Assembly (NCBI GenBank): GCA_003516025.1
Contig: CP023991.1
Span: 570,001-602,000, forward strand
Direction: 5' to 3'
Length of the DNA stretch: 32,000 nucleotides
DNA from: Candidatus Saccharimonadota bacterium
Lineage (GTDB): Bacteria; Patescibacteriota; Saccharimonadia; Saccharimonadales; UBA4665
A program made the position numbers and the translations under genes. The number at the start of each line of letters is the position of its first letter. Position 1 is the stretch's first letter. This document shows positions 4,976 to 23,321 of the stretch, piece after piece. The notes below the pieces were generated by a model. It ran no database searches. It was not told the DNA's origin and worked only from the letters and a program-made list of their open reading frames with translations.

Positions 4976-5051
4976 TGGCAGGGGAGACAGGACTTGAACC
5001 TGCGACACCCGGTTTTGGAGACCGGTGCTCTACCAACTGAGCTACTCCCCT
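4976..5051 (-). tRNA. trnW: tRNA-Trp (anticodon CCA), 76 nt with encoded CCA end
   Basis: The reverse complement folds as a cloverleaf: AGGGGAG-TA-GCTC-AGTTGGTA-GAGC-A-CCGGT-CTCCAAA-ACCGG-GTGTC-GCAGG-TTCAAGT-CCTGT-CTCCCCT-G-CCA. The acceptor stem is 7 bp, the T-loop is TTCAAGT, and the anticodon loop CT-CCA-AA reads CCA. Confidence 0.95.
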
Positions 5052-5080
5052 ACATGCGTTGGAATAGTAGGAACTGGTAC

Positions 5081-5109
5081 ATAATACGGGAAAACAGGCA
5101 TTTTGTCAC
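5081..5109 (-). promoter_or_regulatory. Putative sigma70-type promoter of tRNA-Trp
   Basis: On the minus strand: GTGACA (5109-5104), 17-nt spacer, TATTAT (5086-5081). This lies about 30 nt upstream of the mature tRNA 5' end. Confidence 0.45.
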
Positions 5110-9324: not shown

Positions 9325-9750
9325 GTGGCCGAAGACAAATCAGAAGCGGCAGGCAAATCAGACCAAACAGAGCGTACGAAGCGGCGCCTGCGTGCCAATA
9401 GCGAGACCGTCCGCGAGCGTTCCGAAAAACTGCAGCAACAGGACGAAGCCAGGCAGGCCAAAGGCGGTATACGCGCATTTTTGGGAGGCTTCCTGTGGCC
9501 GCTCCGGGCACTGGGACGACAAATCGCAAAACTCGGAAGATTCCGTTTCTTCCGCTGGGTCGGCTTGGTACTACTGCCACCGTATATCCGCAATAGTTGG
9601 CGCGAACTTCGTCAGGTTACCTGGCCTAACCGTAAGAAAACCTTTCAGCTGACCTACGCGGTTATTGTATTTTCAGTATTGTTCGGACTCGTCATCGCAG
9701 GAGTCGATTACGGACTTGATAAGTTATTTAAGGAGATAATTGTAAAATAA
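9325..9750 (+). CDS. secE: Preprotein translocase subunit SecE with a long charged N-terminal extension
   Basis: The C-terminal part VTWPNRKKTFQLTYAVIVFSVLFGLVIAGVDYGLDKLF is the canonical SecE TM segment. It sits immediately upstream of nusG with a TAATG overlap. GTG start with AAGGAG at 9314-9319. Confidence 0.85.
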   Translation: MAEDKSEAAGKSDQTERTKRRLRANSETVRERSEKLQQQDEARQAKGGIRAFLGGFLWPLRALGRQIAKLGRFRFFRWVGLVLLPPYIRNSWRELRQVTWPNRKKTFQLTYAVIVFSVLFGLVIAGVDYGLDKLFKEIIVK

Positions 9751-10295
9751 TGGCTACAAAACGCTACGACACCACCAAGCAATGGTATGCCATCCATACC
9801 TACAGCGGCTACGAAGAAAAAGTCGCCGAAAGTATCCGGCAGCGTGCTGACTCTTTGGACATGAAGGACAAGATTTACGAAGTCCTGGTTCCAAAAGAAA
9901 AAATGATTGAAATTAAGAACGGCAAGCGCCGCGTCGTGGAAAAGAAAATTTTCCAGGGCTACGTTATCGTCCAGATGAAAATGAGTGAAGACGCCTGGTA
10001 CATCGTTCGTAACACCCCGAGCGTTACCGGCTTCGTCGGCTCCGGCACGGAACCGACCCCACTCGGTGAGGAAGAGATCGAGAAAATCCAGAAGCGCATG
10101 GGTCTGGAACAGCCAAAGCACAAGATTGATTACCGCATCGGTGAAGTCGTTTCTATCACCGACGGTCCGTTTAAGGGCTTCGACGGCGCCATAAACGAAA
10201 TCGACGCTCAAAAGGGTAAATTAAAAGTTCTCGTCAACATGTTCGGACGCGAAACTCCGGTTGAGCTCGACTCGCTGCAAGTTAAGCGTGTGTAG
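9750..10295 (+). CDS. nusG: Transcription termination/antitermination factor NusG
   Basis: 181 aa. The NGN domain begins KQWYAIHTYSGYEEKV. KOW motif: GEVVSITDGPFKGFDGAINEID. Confidence 0.95.
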   Translation: MATKRYDTTKQWYAIHTYSGYEEKVAESIRQRADSLDMKDKIYEVLVPKEKMIEIKNGKRRVVEKKIFQGYVIVQMKMSEDAWYIVRNTPSVTGFVGSGTEPTPLGEEEIEKIQKRMGLEQPKHKIDYRIGEVVSITDGPFKGFDGAINEIDAQKGKLKVLVNMFGRETPVELDSLQVKRV

Positions 10296-10297
10296 CC

Positions 10298-10678
10298 ATG
10301 TCTGAGAGCGTACCAGAGCCTGACGATACCGCACCTGTTCCGCGACTGGAACAGGTAATCACCTATCGCTGTATAGCATTACGTGATGAGGCAGTTGCCT
10401 TGCGACTCCATAACCTCTCAGAGCGCGGAATGGCTCTGGTGATAGCATTTAGCGTGAGGACACAGGAAGCGGTTGGTGTTCCGTATGTCGCTGCTTTGAA
10501 CTCTCAATCACCCTATGTAAAAGCCATGAATGTCATAGCTGCCGAAGAGAAATCTGGCGCGATCGCAGAGGGCTCCACGCATGACGCGGTTCAGACAGCT
10601 ATGGAAGGAACATTGGAACACACCTCCTGGAACGAGTACGTAGAGCGCGCTCGCCAATATCCGTCGGCAGGGTCCTAA
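10298..10678 (+). CDS. Hypothetical protein (126 aa, acidic), inserted between nusG and rplK
   Basis: ATG lies 2 nt after the nusG stop. It is the only long ORF in any frame across this interval. I recognise no motif. Confidence 0.6.
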   Translation: MSESVPEPDDTAPVPRLEQVITYRCIALRDEAVALRLHNLSERGMALVIAFSVRTQEAVGVPYVAALNSQSPYVKAMNVIAAEEKSGAIAEGSTHDAVQTAMEGTLEHTSWNEYVERARQYPSAGS

Positions 10679-10728
10679 TCGCCCATCTTGACATAAGAGT
10701 TATAATATTATACACCTGCTGTCAATAG

Positions 10729-10787
10729 GCTTGTGCTTGGCGCGTATTGTACTTGCACGAATTAAGCGTACAGTATTAAGCACAAGC
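10729..10787 (+). promoter_or_regulatory. 59-nt imperfect hairpin between the two inserted ORFs
   Basis: Perfect 10-bp inverted repeat GCTTGTGCTT (10729-10738) / AAGCACAAGC (10778-10787). An inner 8-bp stem pairs 10745-10752 with 10768-10775 (one G-U). A TTGACA box lies at 10688-10693 upstream and AAGGAG at 10795-10800 downstream. Confidence 0.4.
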
Positions 10788-10813
10788 TTAATGTAAGGAG
10801 CATTGCGACCGCG

Positions 10814-11260
10814 ATGTCAGTACACGAAACCTCTCAAACCTCTGTAACACCTGTTATCAGATACGAGTCACGGGGTAATTTAGATTTTATCCTGATACCT
10901 AAAAGTATGCCTCGGGAATATAGCACATCCGTTGATTATTTAACCCGCTTACTACTGGCTGCCGGCGATCCGATGACCGCGGACGACGCCATATTGCTAC
11001 CCATGGACAAAGAGCGGGCTGACCGGCTTAAACTGAGTGAAGGGTTCCGCGGCGCGGATGCGGTCCGCAACGGCCGTAGCTACGAGAACAGGTATGACGC
11101 CGCGACGCGCCTGGCGGAAATGGCAATCGCCACATACTATCCTGAAATAGCGCCTGAAAGCCAGGTTCCAACTGGCGAGACTCTGGCCACAGTCATAGAA
11201 TTTCCGGCCGCTATACCGGCGCCGCGCCGCGAAGACGATCAGGTATTCGCGCAGGCCTAG
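10814..11260 (+). CDS. Hypothetical protein (148 aa), inserted between nusG and rplK
   Basis: ORF with host-like composition and no motif I recognise. The Shine-Dalgarno AAGGAG lies 13 nt upstream, which is long, so the start is somewhat uncertain. Confidence 0.55.
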   Translation: MSVHETSQTSVTPVIRYESRGNLDFILIPKSMPREYSTSVDYLTRLLLAAGDPMTADDAILLPMDKERADRLKLSEGFRGADAVRNGRSYENRYDAATRLAEMAIATYYPEIAPESQVPTGETLATVIEFPAAIPAPRREDDQVFAQA

Positions 11261-11264
11261 ACCC

Positions 11265-11293
11265 TTGGCAAAAACCGCCAGCACTGGTATAAT
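11265..11293 (+). promoter_or_regulatory. Strong extended -10 promoter for rplK
   Basis: TTGGCA (11265-11270), 17 nt, TATAAT (11288-11293), preceded by TGG (TGn). It predicts a leader of about 115 nt containing a CUC-UUCG-GAG hairpin followed by GGGGUUUUAUU (11367-11393) before AAGGAG at 11402-11407. Confidence 0.55.
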
Positions 11294-11415
11294 CACATCT
11301 GTTACGCACTACTAACTCTGCACTTCAGAGGTATAAACAGGTAGGAGAATAACAACCCGTCGCTTCCATTGCTCTTCGGAGTGGGGTTTTATTCGTTAAA
11401 TAAGGAGAATTATAA

Positions 11416-11847
11416 ATGGCAGAAAAACCAATCCGCGCCAATCTTAAGATGAAAATCCCTGGCGGCCGTGCCAGCGCAGCGCCTCCCGTAGGTAGCACGC
11501 TCGGACAGTACGGCGTTAACATGATGGACTTTATTAATCCGTTCAACGACATGACTAAGGATATGCAGGGACAGACCGTTACCGCGCACATCACCGTCTA
11601 CACGGATCGCACCATGAAATTCCGTGTTGTCGGCGCGCCAACCGACGATCGCATCCGCGCTGAGCTTGGAATCAAAAAAGGTTCCGGCAAGCCGAACAGC
11701 GAAAAGCTTCCCCAGAAACTGACGCAGGCTCAACTGCAGAAGATTGCTGAAGAAAAAGCTCACGATATGAACACCGACGATGTCGAAGCCGTTAAGAAAA
11801 TGGTTGCCGGCACAGCCCGTTCAATGGGCGTTGAAGTCGAAGGTTAG
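11416..11847 (+). CDS. rplK: 50S ribosomal protein L11
   Basis: 143 aa. Contains PPVGSTLGQYGVNMMDF, ...GSGKPN..., and a C-terminal GTARSMGVEVEG typical of L11. Confidence 0.95.
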   Translation: MAEKPIRANLKMKIPGGRASAAPPVGSTLGQYGVNMMDFINPFNDMTKDMQGQTVTAHITVYTDRTMKFRVVGAPTDDRIRAELGIKKGSGKPNSEKLPQKLTQAQLQKIAEEKAHDMNTDDVEAVKKMVAGTARSMGVEVEG

Positions 11848-12258: not shown

Positions 12259-12314
12259 TTAAGATTGTGGGAGGCTCGTAAAACAGCCGTTCGCACCACT
12301 AAAGGAGAATAATT

Positions 12315-13277
12315 ATGGCAGACGCCAATCCAGGAAAATCAAAGAAGAAAGTAGCTGAACTGGGCGACGAAGGTATTGCTGACGTTACCACCACGGCAGA
12401 AGCAACGGAAGTCGTGGAAGAGAAGCACGAAGCTAAAACCGCGTCAGTCGCCAAGTCCGGCAAGCGCAGCGCGAAGTCATTGGCTGAAGCTGAAGCTGAT
12501 GCCGCCAAAGAAGAGCGCAAAGCTTCTAAAACTACCGCCGAGGGCGAAGAAGCACCAAAGCAGAAGCATAACCCAACCCGTTCTAAATTAGAGCGCTCTG
12601 GCAAAAACTTCAAAAAAGCCGCTGAACAGATCGAAAAAGACAAGTCTTACGGTTTGGAAGAAGCTTTGGAACTGGCAACCAAGACCAGCCCGGTTAAGTT
12701 TGACGCTACCGTTGAGCTGCATGTCAACCTGCGTGTTGACCCGCGCCATGCCGACCAGAACATCCGCGACAACTTCGTTTTACCGCAAGGTACTGGTAAA
12801 AGCGTGCGTGTCGCCGTCTTCGCGGACGTTGATGACGCGGCAGCCGCCACTAAAGCCGGTGCCGACATCGCCGGTATCGAAGACATCACCAAAATGCTCG
12901 ATAAGGGCAACATGGACTTCGATATCCTGGTTGCGACACCATCACAGATGGCTAAGCTTGGTAAGTACGCCCGGGCTCTCGGTCCTCGCGGTTTGATGCC
13001 CAACCCTAAGAGCGGTACGGTTACGACTGACGTCACTAAGGCTGTTACAGAAGCTAAAGCCGGCCGTGTTGAGTACCGCGTTGATTCAACCGGTATCGTT
13101 CACCTCGGCATGGGTAAGGTCAGCTTCGGTACCGCCCGTTTACTGGAAAATGCTCAAGCAGTATTAGCCAACATCAAGGCTAACAAACCTGCCAGCGTTA
13201 AAGGTACCTATGTAAAGGCCATCCACATTTCAACCACTATGGGCCCATCCATCACGGTTGAAACCAGCGCCCTGTAG
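12315..13277 (+). CDS. rplA: 50S ribosomal protein L1 with an N-terminal K/E/A-rich extension of about 90 aa
   Basis: The core from about residue 92 ([57 protein letters not shown]...) aligns with bacterial L1. AAGGAG at 12302-12307 supports ATG 12315. There is no other ATG in the first ~110 codons. Confidence 0.92.
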
Positions 13278-22477: not shown

Positions 22478-22523
22478 TTTCCCTCCATTTATTACACTAT
22501 TCCGGCCAGCTATTTGACAGCAG

Positions 22524-23321
22524 GTGTATACTATTCCGCATATGACACCACAGGCTGAAGCCAGTTACAATGCCGCCGATGAAATGACCCTAACGCGCGG
22601 TCCTGCCGCTGTCTGGAATTACTTAGCGGATCCACTGGCAGAGCATCTCTTTATTCCCTTAGAACAGAAAAACCATATCTTAGGAGTGGTAGCGCTTAAC
22701 ACCGTCCTGACCGCTCCACGCTTGTTAAAGCCGCTTGTCGGCAATCGTTACAGCGAACACGCCAAAAACGGAGGCACGCGGGCCGCTATCGGTGACATAC
22801 TCGCCAGTACAGCCATGGACGCGTCGGATGGGCTGGACGGCGCCACGGCCCGCCGCAGTAACCTCGGCAGCACGTTTGGTGTCGGCTTTGACTCCTTTGT
22901 GGATGCCGTTTCACTAAAGGATGATGTTAAACGCGTCCGCGAACGCGCCGTAGCAGGCAGCGATACCACGGTTCTGCGTTTACTCGACATCGACAGCCGA
23001 ATAAAGTGGAGTACTATTGCTCTCGGAGGTGTCGCTAACAAAGCTTCAGAGATATACGTACAACGGAAAGGTATTGTTTTGGAACCGCGAGAGAAGGCCC
23101 ATTCCGTACCTTTCGGTAAAGCTTACTTCGCGGCGGGCGCTACGGCGGCAAAAATCCTGCAGGTAGCCTATGCGTTTCCGGACAGTAGCGTAGCGCGGCG
23201 GCGGTGGCGCCGTGCCGGCATTGGCATGCAGGCAGCAGCTATTGGCCTGGGCGCGGCGGCAGGCGGCCAGTACGCTGCCGCCATCGTAAAACGGCTCCGC
23301 AGGCTCAAACAGCCGAGCTAG
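22524..23321 (+). CDS. CDP-alcohol phosphatidyltransferase family protein (atypical, Ala-rich)
   Basis: Exact family signature D-x2-D-G-x2-A-R-x8-G-x3-D-x3-D in SDGLDGATARRSNLGSTFGVGFDSFVDAV. GTG start at 22524; ATG 22542 is an alternative. Confidence 0.7.
   Translation: MYTIPHMTPQAEASYNAADEMTLTRGPAAVWNYLADPLAEHLFIPLEQKNHILGVVALNTVLTAPRLLKPLVGNRYSEHAKNGGTRAAIGDILASTAMDASDGLDGATARRSNLGSTFGVGFDSFVDAVSLKDDVKRVRERAVAGSDTTVLRLLDIDSRIKWSTIALGGVANKASEIYVQRKGIVLEPREKAHSVPFGKAYFAAGATAAKILQVAYAFPDSSVARRRWRRAGIGMQAAAIGLGAAAGGQYAAAIVKRLRRLKQPS

Follow-up and report, generated by a model that had tools for sequence, protein, structure and literature searches.

Organization of the nusG-rplK Junction

The secE-nusG-rplK-rplA cluster is among the most conserved gene clusters of Bacteria. 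In the genome of a soil member of the Saccharimonadales (Patescibacteria, or candidate phyla radiation, CPR), the junction between nusG and rplK holds two small acidic open reading frames (ORFs), here termed ORF1 and ORF2. The junction lies within a stretch of 32,000 nt (assembly GCA_003516025.1, contig CP023991.1, positions 570,001 to 602,000), referred to as the window; coordinates without a locus name are window positions. On the plus strand, secE (9325–9750) overlaps nusG (9750–10295; Pfam NusG, E 4.8e-30), which is followed by ORF1 (10298–10678; 126 aa), a spacer of 135 nt (10679–10813) and ORF2 (10814–11260; 148 aa). Downstream lie the rplK promoter (11265–11293), the rplK leader (11294–11415) and rplK itself (11416–11847), which encodes ribosomal protein L11 (Pfam Ribosomal_L11_N and Ribosomal_L11). 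The gap between nusG and rplK thus measures 1120 nt, with nusG as its left anchor and the rplK promoter as its right anchor.

ORF1 starts with an ATG 2 nt past the TAG stop codon of nusG and has no Shine-Dalgarno (SD) sequence; its product has an isoelectric point (pI) of 4.9 and no transmembrane segment. The ORF2 protein is likewise acidic (pI 4.7) and soluble, with no hydrophobic segment. A first-pass annotation of the window, made from its letters alone, had placed both frames, the 2-nt gap and the 135-nt spacer correctly. It had also described the composition as host-like, which agrees with GC fractions of 0.54 (ORF1) and 0.55 (ORF2) against 0.51 for the window, and had recognized no domain in either protein, in line with the lack of a significant match in Pfam, NCBIfam, PHROGs and PADLOC (for ORF1, two PHROGs remained below threshold at E 0.03–0.06).

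The spacer between the two frames contains two stem-loops. The first is a palindrome (10688–10725) that reads TTGACA-N7-TATAAT followed by ATTATA-N7-TGTCAA, and the second is a long hairpin on the plus strand (10726–10790) with an outer stem of 14 bp and an inner stem of 9 bp. A candidate ORF2 promoter (10747–10774, plus strand) consists of TTGTAC (10747–10752), a 16-nt spacer and TACAGT (10769–10774). It is followed by the leader motif TAAGCACAAGCTTAATG (10777–10793, plus strand), which stands directly 5' of the SD sequence AAGGAG (10795–10800).

A Variable Slot Between Conserved Anchors

A search with NusG as the probe recovered 80 related loci, 72 of which also contain rplK. They come from metagenome-assembled genomes (MAGs) mostly titled Saccharibacteria or Saccharimonadales, and their NusG proteins are 88–97% identical in amino acid sequence to that of the window. 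The nusG gene differs at 0.01–0.04 of nonsynonymous sites (pN) versus about 0.65–0.75 of synonymous sites (pS), and L11 is 72–92% identical among the 80 relatives. The gap between the two genes, by comparison, ranges from 57 to 4312 nt in the 72 Saccharimonadales loci (median 651 nt including the 1120 nt of this genome), so that the direct succession of nusG and rplK assumed in the first-pass annotation does not hold within the bacterium's own clade. The neighboring rplK-rplA gap, 0.47 kb long here and 19–1898 nt in the related loci, carries two more small plus-strand ORFs in this genome (11849–12049 and 12052–12258; 66 and 68 aa), and all four small ORFs of the two gaps encode acidic proteins (pI 4.3–4.9). 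None of the four has a homologue in the 80 loci found with the NusG probe.

The same lack of kinship characterizes the gap contents at large. Among gap ORFs of at least 40 aa, 452 of 458 are without a homologue in another locus, and the large ones include an IS1595 transposase, a protein with a phage-tail-lysozyme domain, HATPase_c_2 proteins, DUF6829 and DUF1152 proteins and hydrolases. The gaps are nevertheless densely coding on the strand of the operon: the share of sequence covered by ORFs of 60 aa or more is 69% on the plus strand, 41% on the minus strand and 21% in shuffled sequences, and coverage is higher on the plus strand in 47 loci and on the minus strand in 8 (p 8e-8). In 35 of the 72 related loci, an ORF on the same strand starts within 50 nt of the nusG stop codon. 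With a gap that varies in length and content yet codes densely on the operon strand, the junction between nusG and rplK in this clade is, on the evidence of its gene content, a variable accessory-gene slot, of which the present locus is one instance.

The first ORFs after nusG (L002–L081 in our numbering of the related loci) are unrelated to one another. Many are Cys-rich (L005, L014, L017, L022, L024/25, L036/45, L053 and L056) and others resemble membrane proteins with one or two helices (L007, L019, L032 and L041), so that, judged by sequence type, the slot holds several distinct kinds of small protein. Across L002–L088, NusG is 88–99% identical with synonymous sites near saturation, while the overlapping neighbor SecE reaches only 32–64% identity. 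Five contigs (L004, L005, L025, L051 and L070) carry a secE-nusG-rplK arrangement of Saccharimonadales type, with a NusG 92–96% identical, and yet bear titles that include Limnocylindrales, Pristimantibacillus, Bacillota, Nevskiaceae and Dormiibacterota; these are likely mis-binned or mislabelled MAGs. In the literature library searched, no paper combines Saccharibacteria, nusG and rplK, and a broader synteny query gave nothing related.

ORF2 Defines a Position-Fixed Protein Family

An exhaustive HMMER search of 1.84e9 representative proteins, for which ORF2 was the only query, identified four homologues (P0003–P0006; E 6.5e-18 to 2e-4), and a profile search added a fifth (P0007). The six sequences are 27–58% identical among themselves and align over their full length, with the blocks ILxPxxMPxSY, GRxYxNRYD and a C-terminal IPxPR (alignment A5). 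In all 15 pairs, pN (0.27–0.54) is below pS (0.68–0.84, saturated). ORF2 has roughly double the pN of SecE and over 10 times that of NusG. Codon usage is typical of the genome (0.19 bits/codon, the average gene having 0.22; z 5.25 relative to random open frames), and an open frame of this length arises in 0.25% of composition-matched shuffles. Because of its homologues, the excess of pS over pN and its typical codon usage, ORF2 is a genuine, fast-evolving gene under purifying selection. All homologues with enough flanking sequence lie between nusG and rplK, directly 5' of the rplK promoter (L082 and L084–L088). The comparisons of homologues, synteny and codon-level divergence that the first-pass annotation had suggested thus come out in favor of ORF2.

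The family is narrow. Among 5.8 billion protein clusters, a word-indexed search found ORF2 alone, the ORF2 profile recruited no further member from any of the 88 loci, and a tblastn search gave no phage match. Neither ORF2 nor the six family members as a set have a consistent match among the curated families of Pfam, NCBIfam, PHROGs and PADLOC, and the best hit of a family profile against the PDB has an E of 0.5. A scan of metagenome DNA for GTACAGTNNTAARCACAAGCTTAA gave 0 matches.

The genomes that carry ORF2 form one clade in a neighbor-joining tree of SecE and NusG, and L002, which is nested inside this clade, retains a relic of the ORF2 unit at 5038–5088: the leader motif in the form TAAGCACAAGCT followed by ATGTCAGTTGAGATGTAG, which reads ATG-TCA-GTT-GAG-ATG-TAG (MSVEM-stop). 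This relic is direct evidence of ORF2 loss. In the same locus, an upstream Cys-rich ORF of 97 aa extends into the position of the lost promoter. A possible allelic exchange between L087 and L088 was also considered, pS being 0.73 in ORF2 and 0.37 in a 49-codon rplK fragment; the sample is too small and rplK is codon-biased, and no claim is made.

The ORF2 family is not tied to ORF1. Three of the five other member types (L085/86, L087 and L088) have no first ORF at all, and those of L082 and L084 are not homologous to ORF1, with Smith-Waterman scores at the level of shuffled sequences. It follows that ORF1 and ORF2 are not an obligate pair.

A Conserved Promoter-Like Element and Leader Motif Precede ORF2

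The first-pass annotation had both genes riding on the expression of the transcription and translation core. For ORF2, dependence on nusG expression is not supported, as it has a promoter-like element and leader of its own, conserved in all six loci of the ORF2 family. The element has the form [TC]T[TG][AT][AC][AC]-16 nt-TACAGT with an unconserved spacer. Its −35-like hexamer reads TTTACA in three loci and TTGTAC, TTGTAA or CTGTAC in the others, (G)TACAGT is invariant, and the near-invariant TAAGCACAAGCTTAATG and then the SD sequence follow 2 nt later and in the same order in all six spacers. The leader motif occurs with 0–2 mismatches in L082, L084, L087 and L088. Between these genomes, nusG, rplK and ORF2 are close to saturated at synonymous sites, and the nucleotide conservation of the block is therefore taken to reflect constraint.

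The block is read as a promoter with a leader because the rplK promoter shows the same pattern, in which the hexamers are kept, the spacer is free to vary and the leader start is kept. The rplK promoter is a near-consensus TTGGCA-17-TATAAT (11 of 12 consensus positions, with a TG), and L002, L003, L004, L082 and L085 share both this promoter and the leader start ATCTGTTACGCACTAC. By this analogy, TTGTAC-16-TACAGT most likely serves ORF2 as a promoter of its own, and TAAGCACAAGCTTAATG probably has a regulatory role, as an operator or as an element of the 5' leader.

The leader motif is found beyond the family as well. It is retained in the L002 relic, and in L003 and L004 it precedes ORFs of 68 and 133 aa without detectable similarity to the ORF2 family; the ORF of L004 was also compared with ORF1, with a negative result. 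Within the gaps, the motif has 6 hits on the plus strand versus 1 on the minus strand and 0–2 in shuffled sequences. Judged by this distribution, TAAGCACAAGCTTAATG outlasts recognizable protein homology and acts like a regulatory site in its own right. Inspection of the motif by eye gave no convincing fit to a dif/Xer site or a DnaA box and no persuasive complementarity to the anti-SD sequence. Separately, the promoter/leader block (10768–10792) resembles a nusG segment encoding PKHKID (10113–10130), matching about 20 of 25 nt in the form CCTAAGCACAAGATTGAT found in relatives, and the 5' arm of the spacer hairpin is partly complementary to the same segment (repeat I5); the resemblance is probably a coincidence.

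ORF1 Is Probably an Orphan Gene Coupled to nusG

ORF1 has a different standing. The word-indexed search of 5.8 billion protein clusters returned a self match only, and searches of 87 related loci with tblastn, phmmer, blastn and nhmmer gave no protein or DNA homologue apart from one marginal case: the C-terminal half of ORF1 and the second gap ORF of L010 match reciprocally at E 0.03–0.04, and a profile built from the two recruited no further sequence. No phage or plasmid match was obtained with tblastn, and a comparison with the ORF2 family was negative. The description of both frames as lineage-specific genes stands for both, although for ORF1 it meets with the absence of homologues that the first-pass annotation had itself named as the mark of a spurious frame.

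The alternative that ORF1 is not a gene is the strongest of the rivals, and we regard it as a serious though less favored possibility. Under this reading, the 381 nt downstream of nusG are filler that is non-coding or in decay, for instance the remains of earlier cargo, and their open frame is due to chance. Besides the missing homologues and SD sequence, this agrees with a codon score (0.009 bits/codon) close to the lowest seen in real genes (mean 0.22), with a poor single-sequence AlphaFold2 (AF2) model (predicted local distance difference test, pLDDT, 47.8) and with a Foldseek search of that model that returned nothing at E<=0.001. Against it, an open frame of this length occurs in only 0.36% of composition-matched shuffles, and the codon score, low as it is, lies above that of every one of 500 composition-matched random open frames (z 2.76). 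The ORF1 frame also scores best of all six, 0.28 bits above the antisense frame. The start 2 nt past the nusG stop codon follows a pattern that recurs in 35 relatives, the gaps are coding-dense on the strand of ORF1, and there is the marginal reciprocal similarity to the L010 ORF. ORF1 is kept as a gene on these arguments of codon usage and position, and the balance leans, without much to spare, towards a real gene. It would probably be a species-restricted orphan whose translation is coupled to that of nusG; the coupling proposed in the first-pass annotation fits both the 2-nt spacing and the recurrence of closely following ORFs.

The TTGACA Palindrome and the Spacer Hairpin

The TTGACA box that the first-pass annotation had pointed out in the spacer is present at 10688–10693, where it forms the 5' arm of the palindrome and is separate from the hairpin. 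As a promoter it fails on spacing: there is no −10 element at 16–18 nt, TATAAT follows after only 7 nt, and a promoter scan makes no call. Each strand of the palindrome reads TTGACA-N7-TATAAT, and the palindrome is conserved with a shorter center in L084 (1862–1893). Its 16-mer TTGACAGCAGGTGTAT recurs exactly in front of another gene at 22514–22529, 13 nt 5' of an ATG at 22543, and similar TTGACA-N7-TATA(A/T)(T/A) strings occur in L006 (2772–2790, minus strand) and L064 (5166–5184). Since a spacing of 7 nt is wrong for sigma-70, the recurrent string may be a transcription-factor site or an unusual type of promoter.

The perfect 10-bp inverted repeat noted earlier (10729–10738/10778–10787) is real and belongs to a hairpin larger than described (10726–10790), with an outer stem of 14 bp (10726–10739/10777–10790) and an inner stem of 9 bp (10744–10752/10768–10776). 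The hairpin has a folding energy (dG) of −28.1 kcal/mol and a z of −4.16, and 0 of 200 shuffles fold as well. Its outer 5' arm (10726–10739) is an inverted copy of the leader motif found only in this genome and absent from all homologous spacers, and the hairpin as a whole is unique within the window and among all loci. The inner stem arises from complementarity between the −35-like and −10-like hexamers. Besides the window, L084 and L085 have it, and L082, L087 and L088 lack it. The idea of a conserved element that covariation would reveal is therefore not borne out: RNAalifold finds 5 pairs and 0 compensatory changes.

A rival account, which we consider unlikely, would take TTGACA at 10688 as the promoter and the hairpin as a regulator or stabilizer in the 5' untranslated region of the ORF2 mRNA, or else the hairpin as the terminator of a nusG-ORF1 transcript. 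A structure this stable and non-random (z −4.2) invites such a role, and so do the conservation of the TTGACA palindrome in L084 and the persistence of the inner stem in two loci (L084 and L085), where four one-sided changes all remain compatible with pairing. RNase III could plausibly also act on a stem of about 25 bp. Several points speak against the account, however. The TTGACA box lacks a suitably spaced −10 element, the outer stem occurs in this genome only, L082, L087 and L088 have neither stem, no compensatory pairs are seen, and no Rfam family matches at the gathering threshold or even at E<=10. Termination is opposed by the lack of a U-tract, the hairpin being followed by UUAAUGUAAGG, and a terminator scan yields only a 5-bp sub-stem with a poor tail. 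A textbook intrinsic terminator does stand directly after nusG in the close relative L004 (2135–2180; ACAGGCAGC-TTGAG-GCTGCCTGT followed by TTTTTGTT), so canonical terminators exist in the clade and are absent from the window spacer. Moreover, if transcription of ORF2 starts near 10781, its mRNA contains the 3' arm only, and the hairpin can form only in read-through from nusG-ORF1 or as DNA. By these comparisons the hairpin is not a conserved element of the riboswitch kind, nor is it an intrinsic terminator. It is more plausibly a lineage-specific by-product or add-on, created by inverted duplication of the leader motif and possibly serving as a second operator copy or as a processing or barrier site.

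Interpretation and Alternatives

Taken together, the findings suggest that small genes are gained, lost and replaced between a left anchor, nusG, and a right anchor formed by the rplK promoter and leader, both strongly conserved. ORF2 would be a vertically inherited, fast-evolving gene encoding a small acidic soluble protein of a new, clade-restricted family that keeps its position and was lost in L002. It would be transcribed from its own promoter, with TAAGCACAAGCTTAATG at the transcription start or in the leader as an operator or 5'-leader element. ORF1 would be a species-specific orphan, probably real and translated by termination-reinitiation coupling to nusG. The hairpin would result from an inverted copy of the leader motif placed 5' of the promoter; it could form in nusG-ORF1 read-through or as a cruciform, or act as a second operator copy, and any activity it has might lie in separating the ORF2 unit from the nusG-ORF1 transcript, as a barrier or a processing site. 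This explanation as a whole is held with moderate confidence.

Besides the weak points of ORF1 given above, some observations count against it. The AF2 model of ORF2, predicted from the single sequence with no alignment, is poor (pLDDT 38.5), and the tree that unites the ORF2 carriers rests on about 320 aa. The hexamers of the window (TTGTAC/TACAGT) match the sigma-70 consensus at 7 of 12 positions, which is below the scan threshold, and were not called as a promoter. In L003 and L004 the leader motif lies 13–17 nt downstream of a different, canonical TTGACW-16/17-TATAAT promoter, so the TACAGT block could be part of the leader instead of a −10 element. Finally, the motif is a partial palindrome (TAAGC-ACAA-GCTTA) whose pairs are broken in L082 and L085 with no covariation; an RNA hairpin or a perfect palindromic operator was rejected for the motif on these grounds.

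Among the further alternatives, the gaps after nusG and between rplK and rplA could be a gene nursery or rapid-replacement locus. Read-through from nusG and the hand-over of re-initiating ribosomes would expose gap sequence to translation, and TAAGCACAAGCTTAATG would serve as a conserved "socket" for the expression of exchangeable coding sequences placed behind it. ORF1 and similar orphans would arise de novo or nearly so and turn over fast, and ORF2 would be a long-lived occupant. The different and unrelated ORFs within 50 nt of the nusG stop codon in 35 relatives fit this proposal, as do the small size of all these genes and the lack of homologues and weak codon adaptation of ORF1. We give it little credence: no non-coding precursor sequence was found in any relative, some cargo (transposase, lysozyme) was clearly acquired, and the extreme divergence of ancient genes would fit the same data, given that ORF2 falls to 27% identity within one clade.

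It is less probable still that the two frames encode dedicated factors that associate with NusG or the ribosome (L11/L1) and are co-expressed with these partners, as the first-pass annotation had proposed. Such a role could be read from their position inside secE-nusG-rplK-rplA, from the constant place of ORF2-family genes directly 5' of rplK, from the acidity of the four small ORFs (pI 4.3–4.9), as expected of chaperones or mimics for basic ribosomal proteins, and from an unusual extension of about 100 aa in L1. Yet the 80 relatives have neither gene while their NusG (88–97%) and L11 (72–92%) are conserved, a distribution that speaks against an essential partnership. In sister genomes whose NusG and L11 are nearly identical, both genes are missing, ORF2 has been lost (L002) or unrelated cargo such as the transposase and the lysozyme occupies the slot instead. 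The rate of nonsynonymous change in ORF2 given above, far exceeding that of NusG, points the same way, and no similarity to any known ribosome or RNA polymerase factor was found. As far as comparative sequence evidence goes, the location of the genes reflects the variable slot and not a functional tie to NusG or the ribosome.

The weakest alternative, a selfish or defensive two-gene module (toxin-antitoxin or anti-phage) inserted between nusG and rplK, which the first-pass annotation had also raised, is suggested by two small adjacent genes with no assigned function in a variable region and by an operator-like palindromic motif at the ORF2 start, as in autoregulated toxin-antitoxin operons, and is highly improbable because ORF2 homologues occur alone (L085/86, L087 and L088) or with non-homologous first ORFs (L082 and L084), no PADLOC, PHROG, phage or plasmid match was found, composition and codon usage are host-like, ORF2 is acidic, unlike a DNA-binding antitoxin, and its carriers form one clade, consistent with vertical descent. 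Signs of a recent mobile element are likewise lacking at the locus, with host-like GC content and codons, no meaningful direct repeats, no phage match for either frame and no plasmid match for ORF1.

Comparison With Known Systems

In E. coli and most Bacteria, the canonical secE-nusG/rplKAJL-rpoBC cluster has the same gene order, an overlap of secE and nusG, and an rplK with its own strong promoter and a conserved leader. The present cluster differs by 1.1 kb and two genes between nusG and rplK and by 0.47 kb and two ORFs between rplK and rplA. Its variable junction resembles the accessory-gene hot spots known between core genes, which likewise combine conserved flanks with unrelated cargo, an occasional insertion sequence and relics of loss (here L002). 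In contrast to such hot spots, the cargo mostly consists of single, very small, host-like ORFs on the operon strand, and no integrase, tRNA, att-type direct repeats or compositional anomaly are seen in the window.

Orphan genes of the CPR are likewise small, without a domain or structural match, and narrowly distributed. ORF2 stands apart from them by its strictly fixed position and by a leader conserved at the nucleotide level that outlasts recognizable protein homology. The spacer hairpin shares with intrinsic terminators and REP-like (repetitive extragenic palindromic) hairpins a stable GC-containing stem-loop in the spacer after a gene; it differs in having no U-tract, in being unrepeated in the 32-kb window and among the loci, and in enclosing promoter-like hexamers. 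Less usual are the location of a hot spot within a core cluster and a motif that outlives its genes. The genes are otherwise lineage-restricted accessory genes of a known type, and the novelty is modest.

The value of the finding is likewise modest. If the preferred reading is true, the genes between nusG and rplK are fast-turnover occupants of a slot in a highly conserved cluster and not hidden core transcription or translation factors, and ORF2 represents a new position-fixed family of small proteins of ultra-small episymbionts, bacteria whose accessory gene content has been little explored. A regulatory motif of 17 nt could then outlast recognizable protein homology, which would provide a handle for finding its regulator. 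With conserved anchors and dozens of different fillings, the slot would also be a tractable natural system for the study of orphan-gene turnover and translational coupling in reduced CPR genomes.

Features of the rplK-rplA Region

The rplK 5' leader (11294–11415; also L002 5196–5291, L082 2804–2889 and L085 5452–5560) is strongly conserved, in the order ATCTGTTACGCACTAC, GGTAGGAGAAT and GGGTTTTTATTCGTTAA(A)TAAGGAG. It matches no Rfam family and may be an undescribed ribosomal-protein leader. Downstream of rplK, the ORFs of 66 and 68 aa (pI 4.6 and 4.3) have gene-like codon scores (z 3.1 and 3.5). They are followed by a segment of about 50 nt directly 5' of rplA (12264–12314; GTGGGAGGCTCGTAAAACAGCCGTTCGCACCACTAAAGGAG) that is 75–96% identical in about 20 relatives, whereas the remaining rplK-rplA gap is unrelated. 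This segment is a candidate L1 autoregulatory site, placed before rplA instead of rplK.

The rplK leader and the segment upstream of rplA share with the ORF2 unit the pattern of an unconserved promoter spacer and a strongly conserved 5' leader, which recalls autoregulatory leaders of ribosomal proteins such as the L1-controlled leader of the L11 operon. The ORF2 motif differs from these in being 17 nt long, in having no supported secondary structure and no Rfam match, and in preceding a non-ribosomal gene.

The rplA gene itself (12315–13277, plus strand) encodes an L1 protein with an N-terminal extension of about 100–120 aa (12315–12680) that is rich in Lys, Ala and Glu, the Pfam L1 domain beginning at residue 123.

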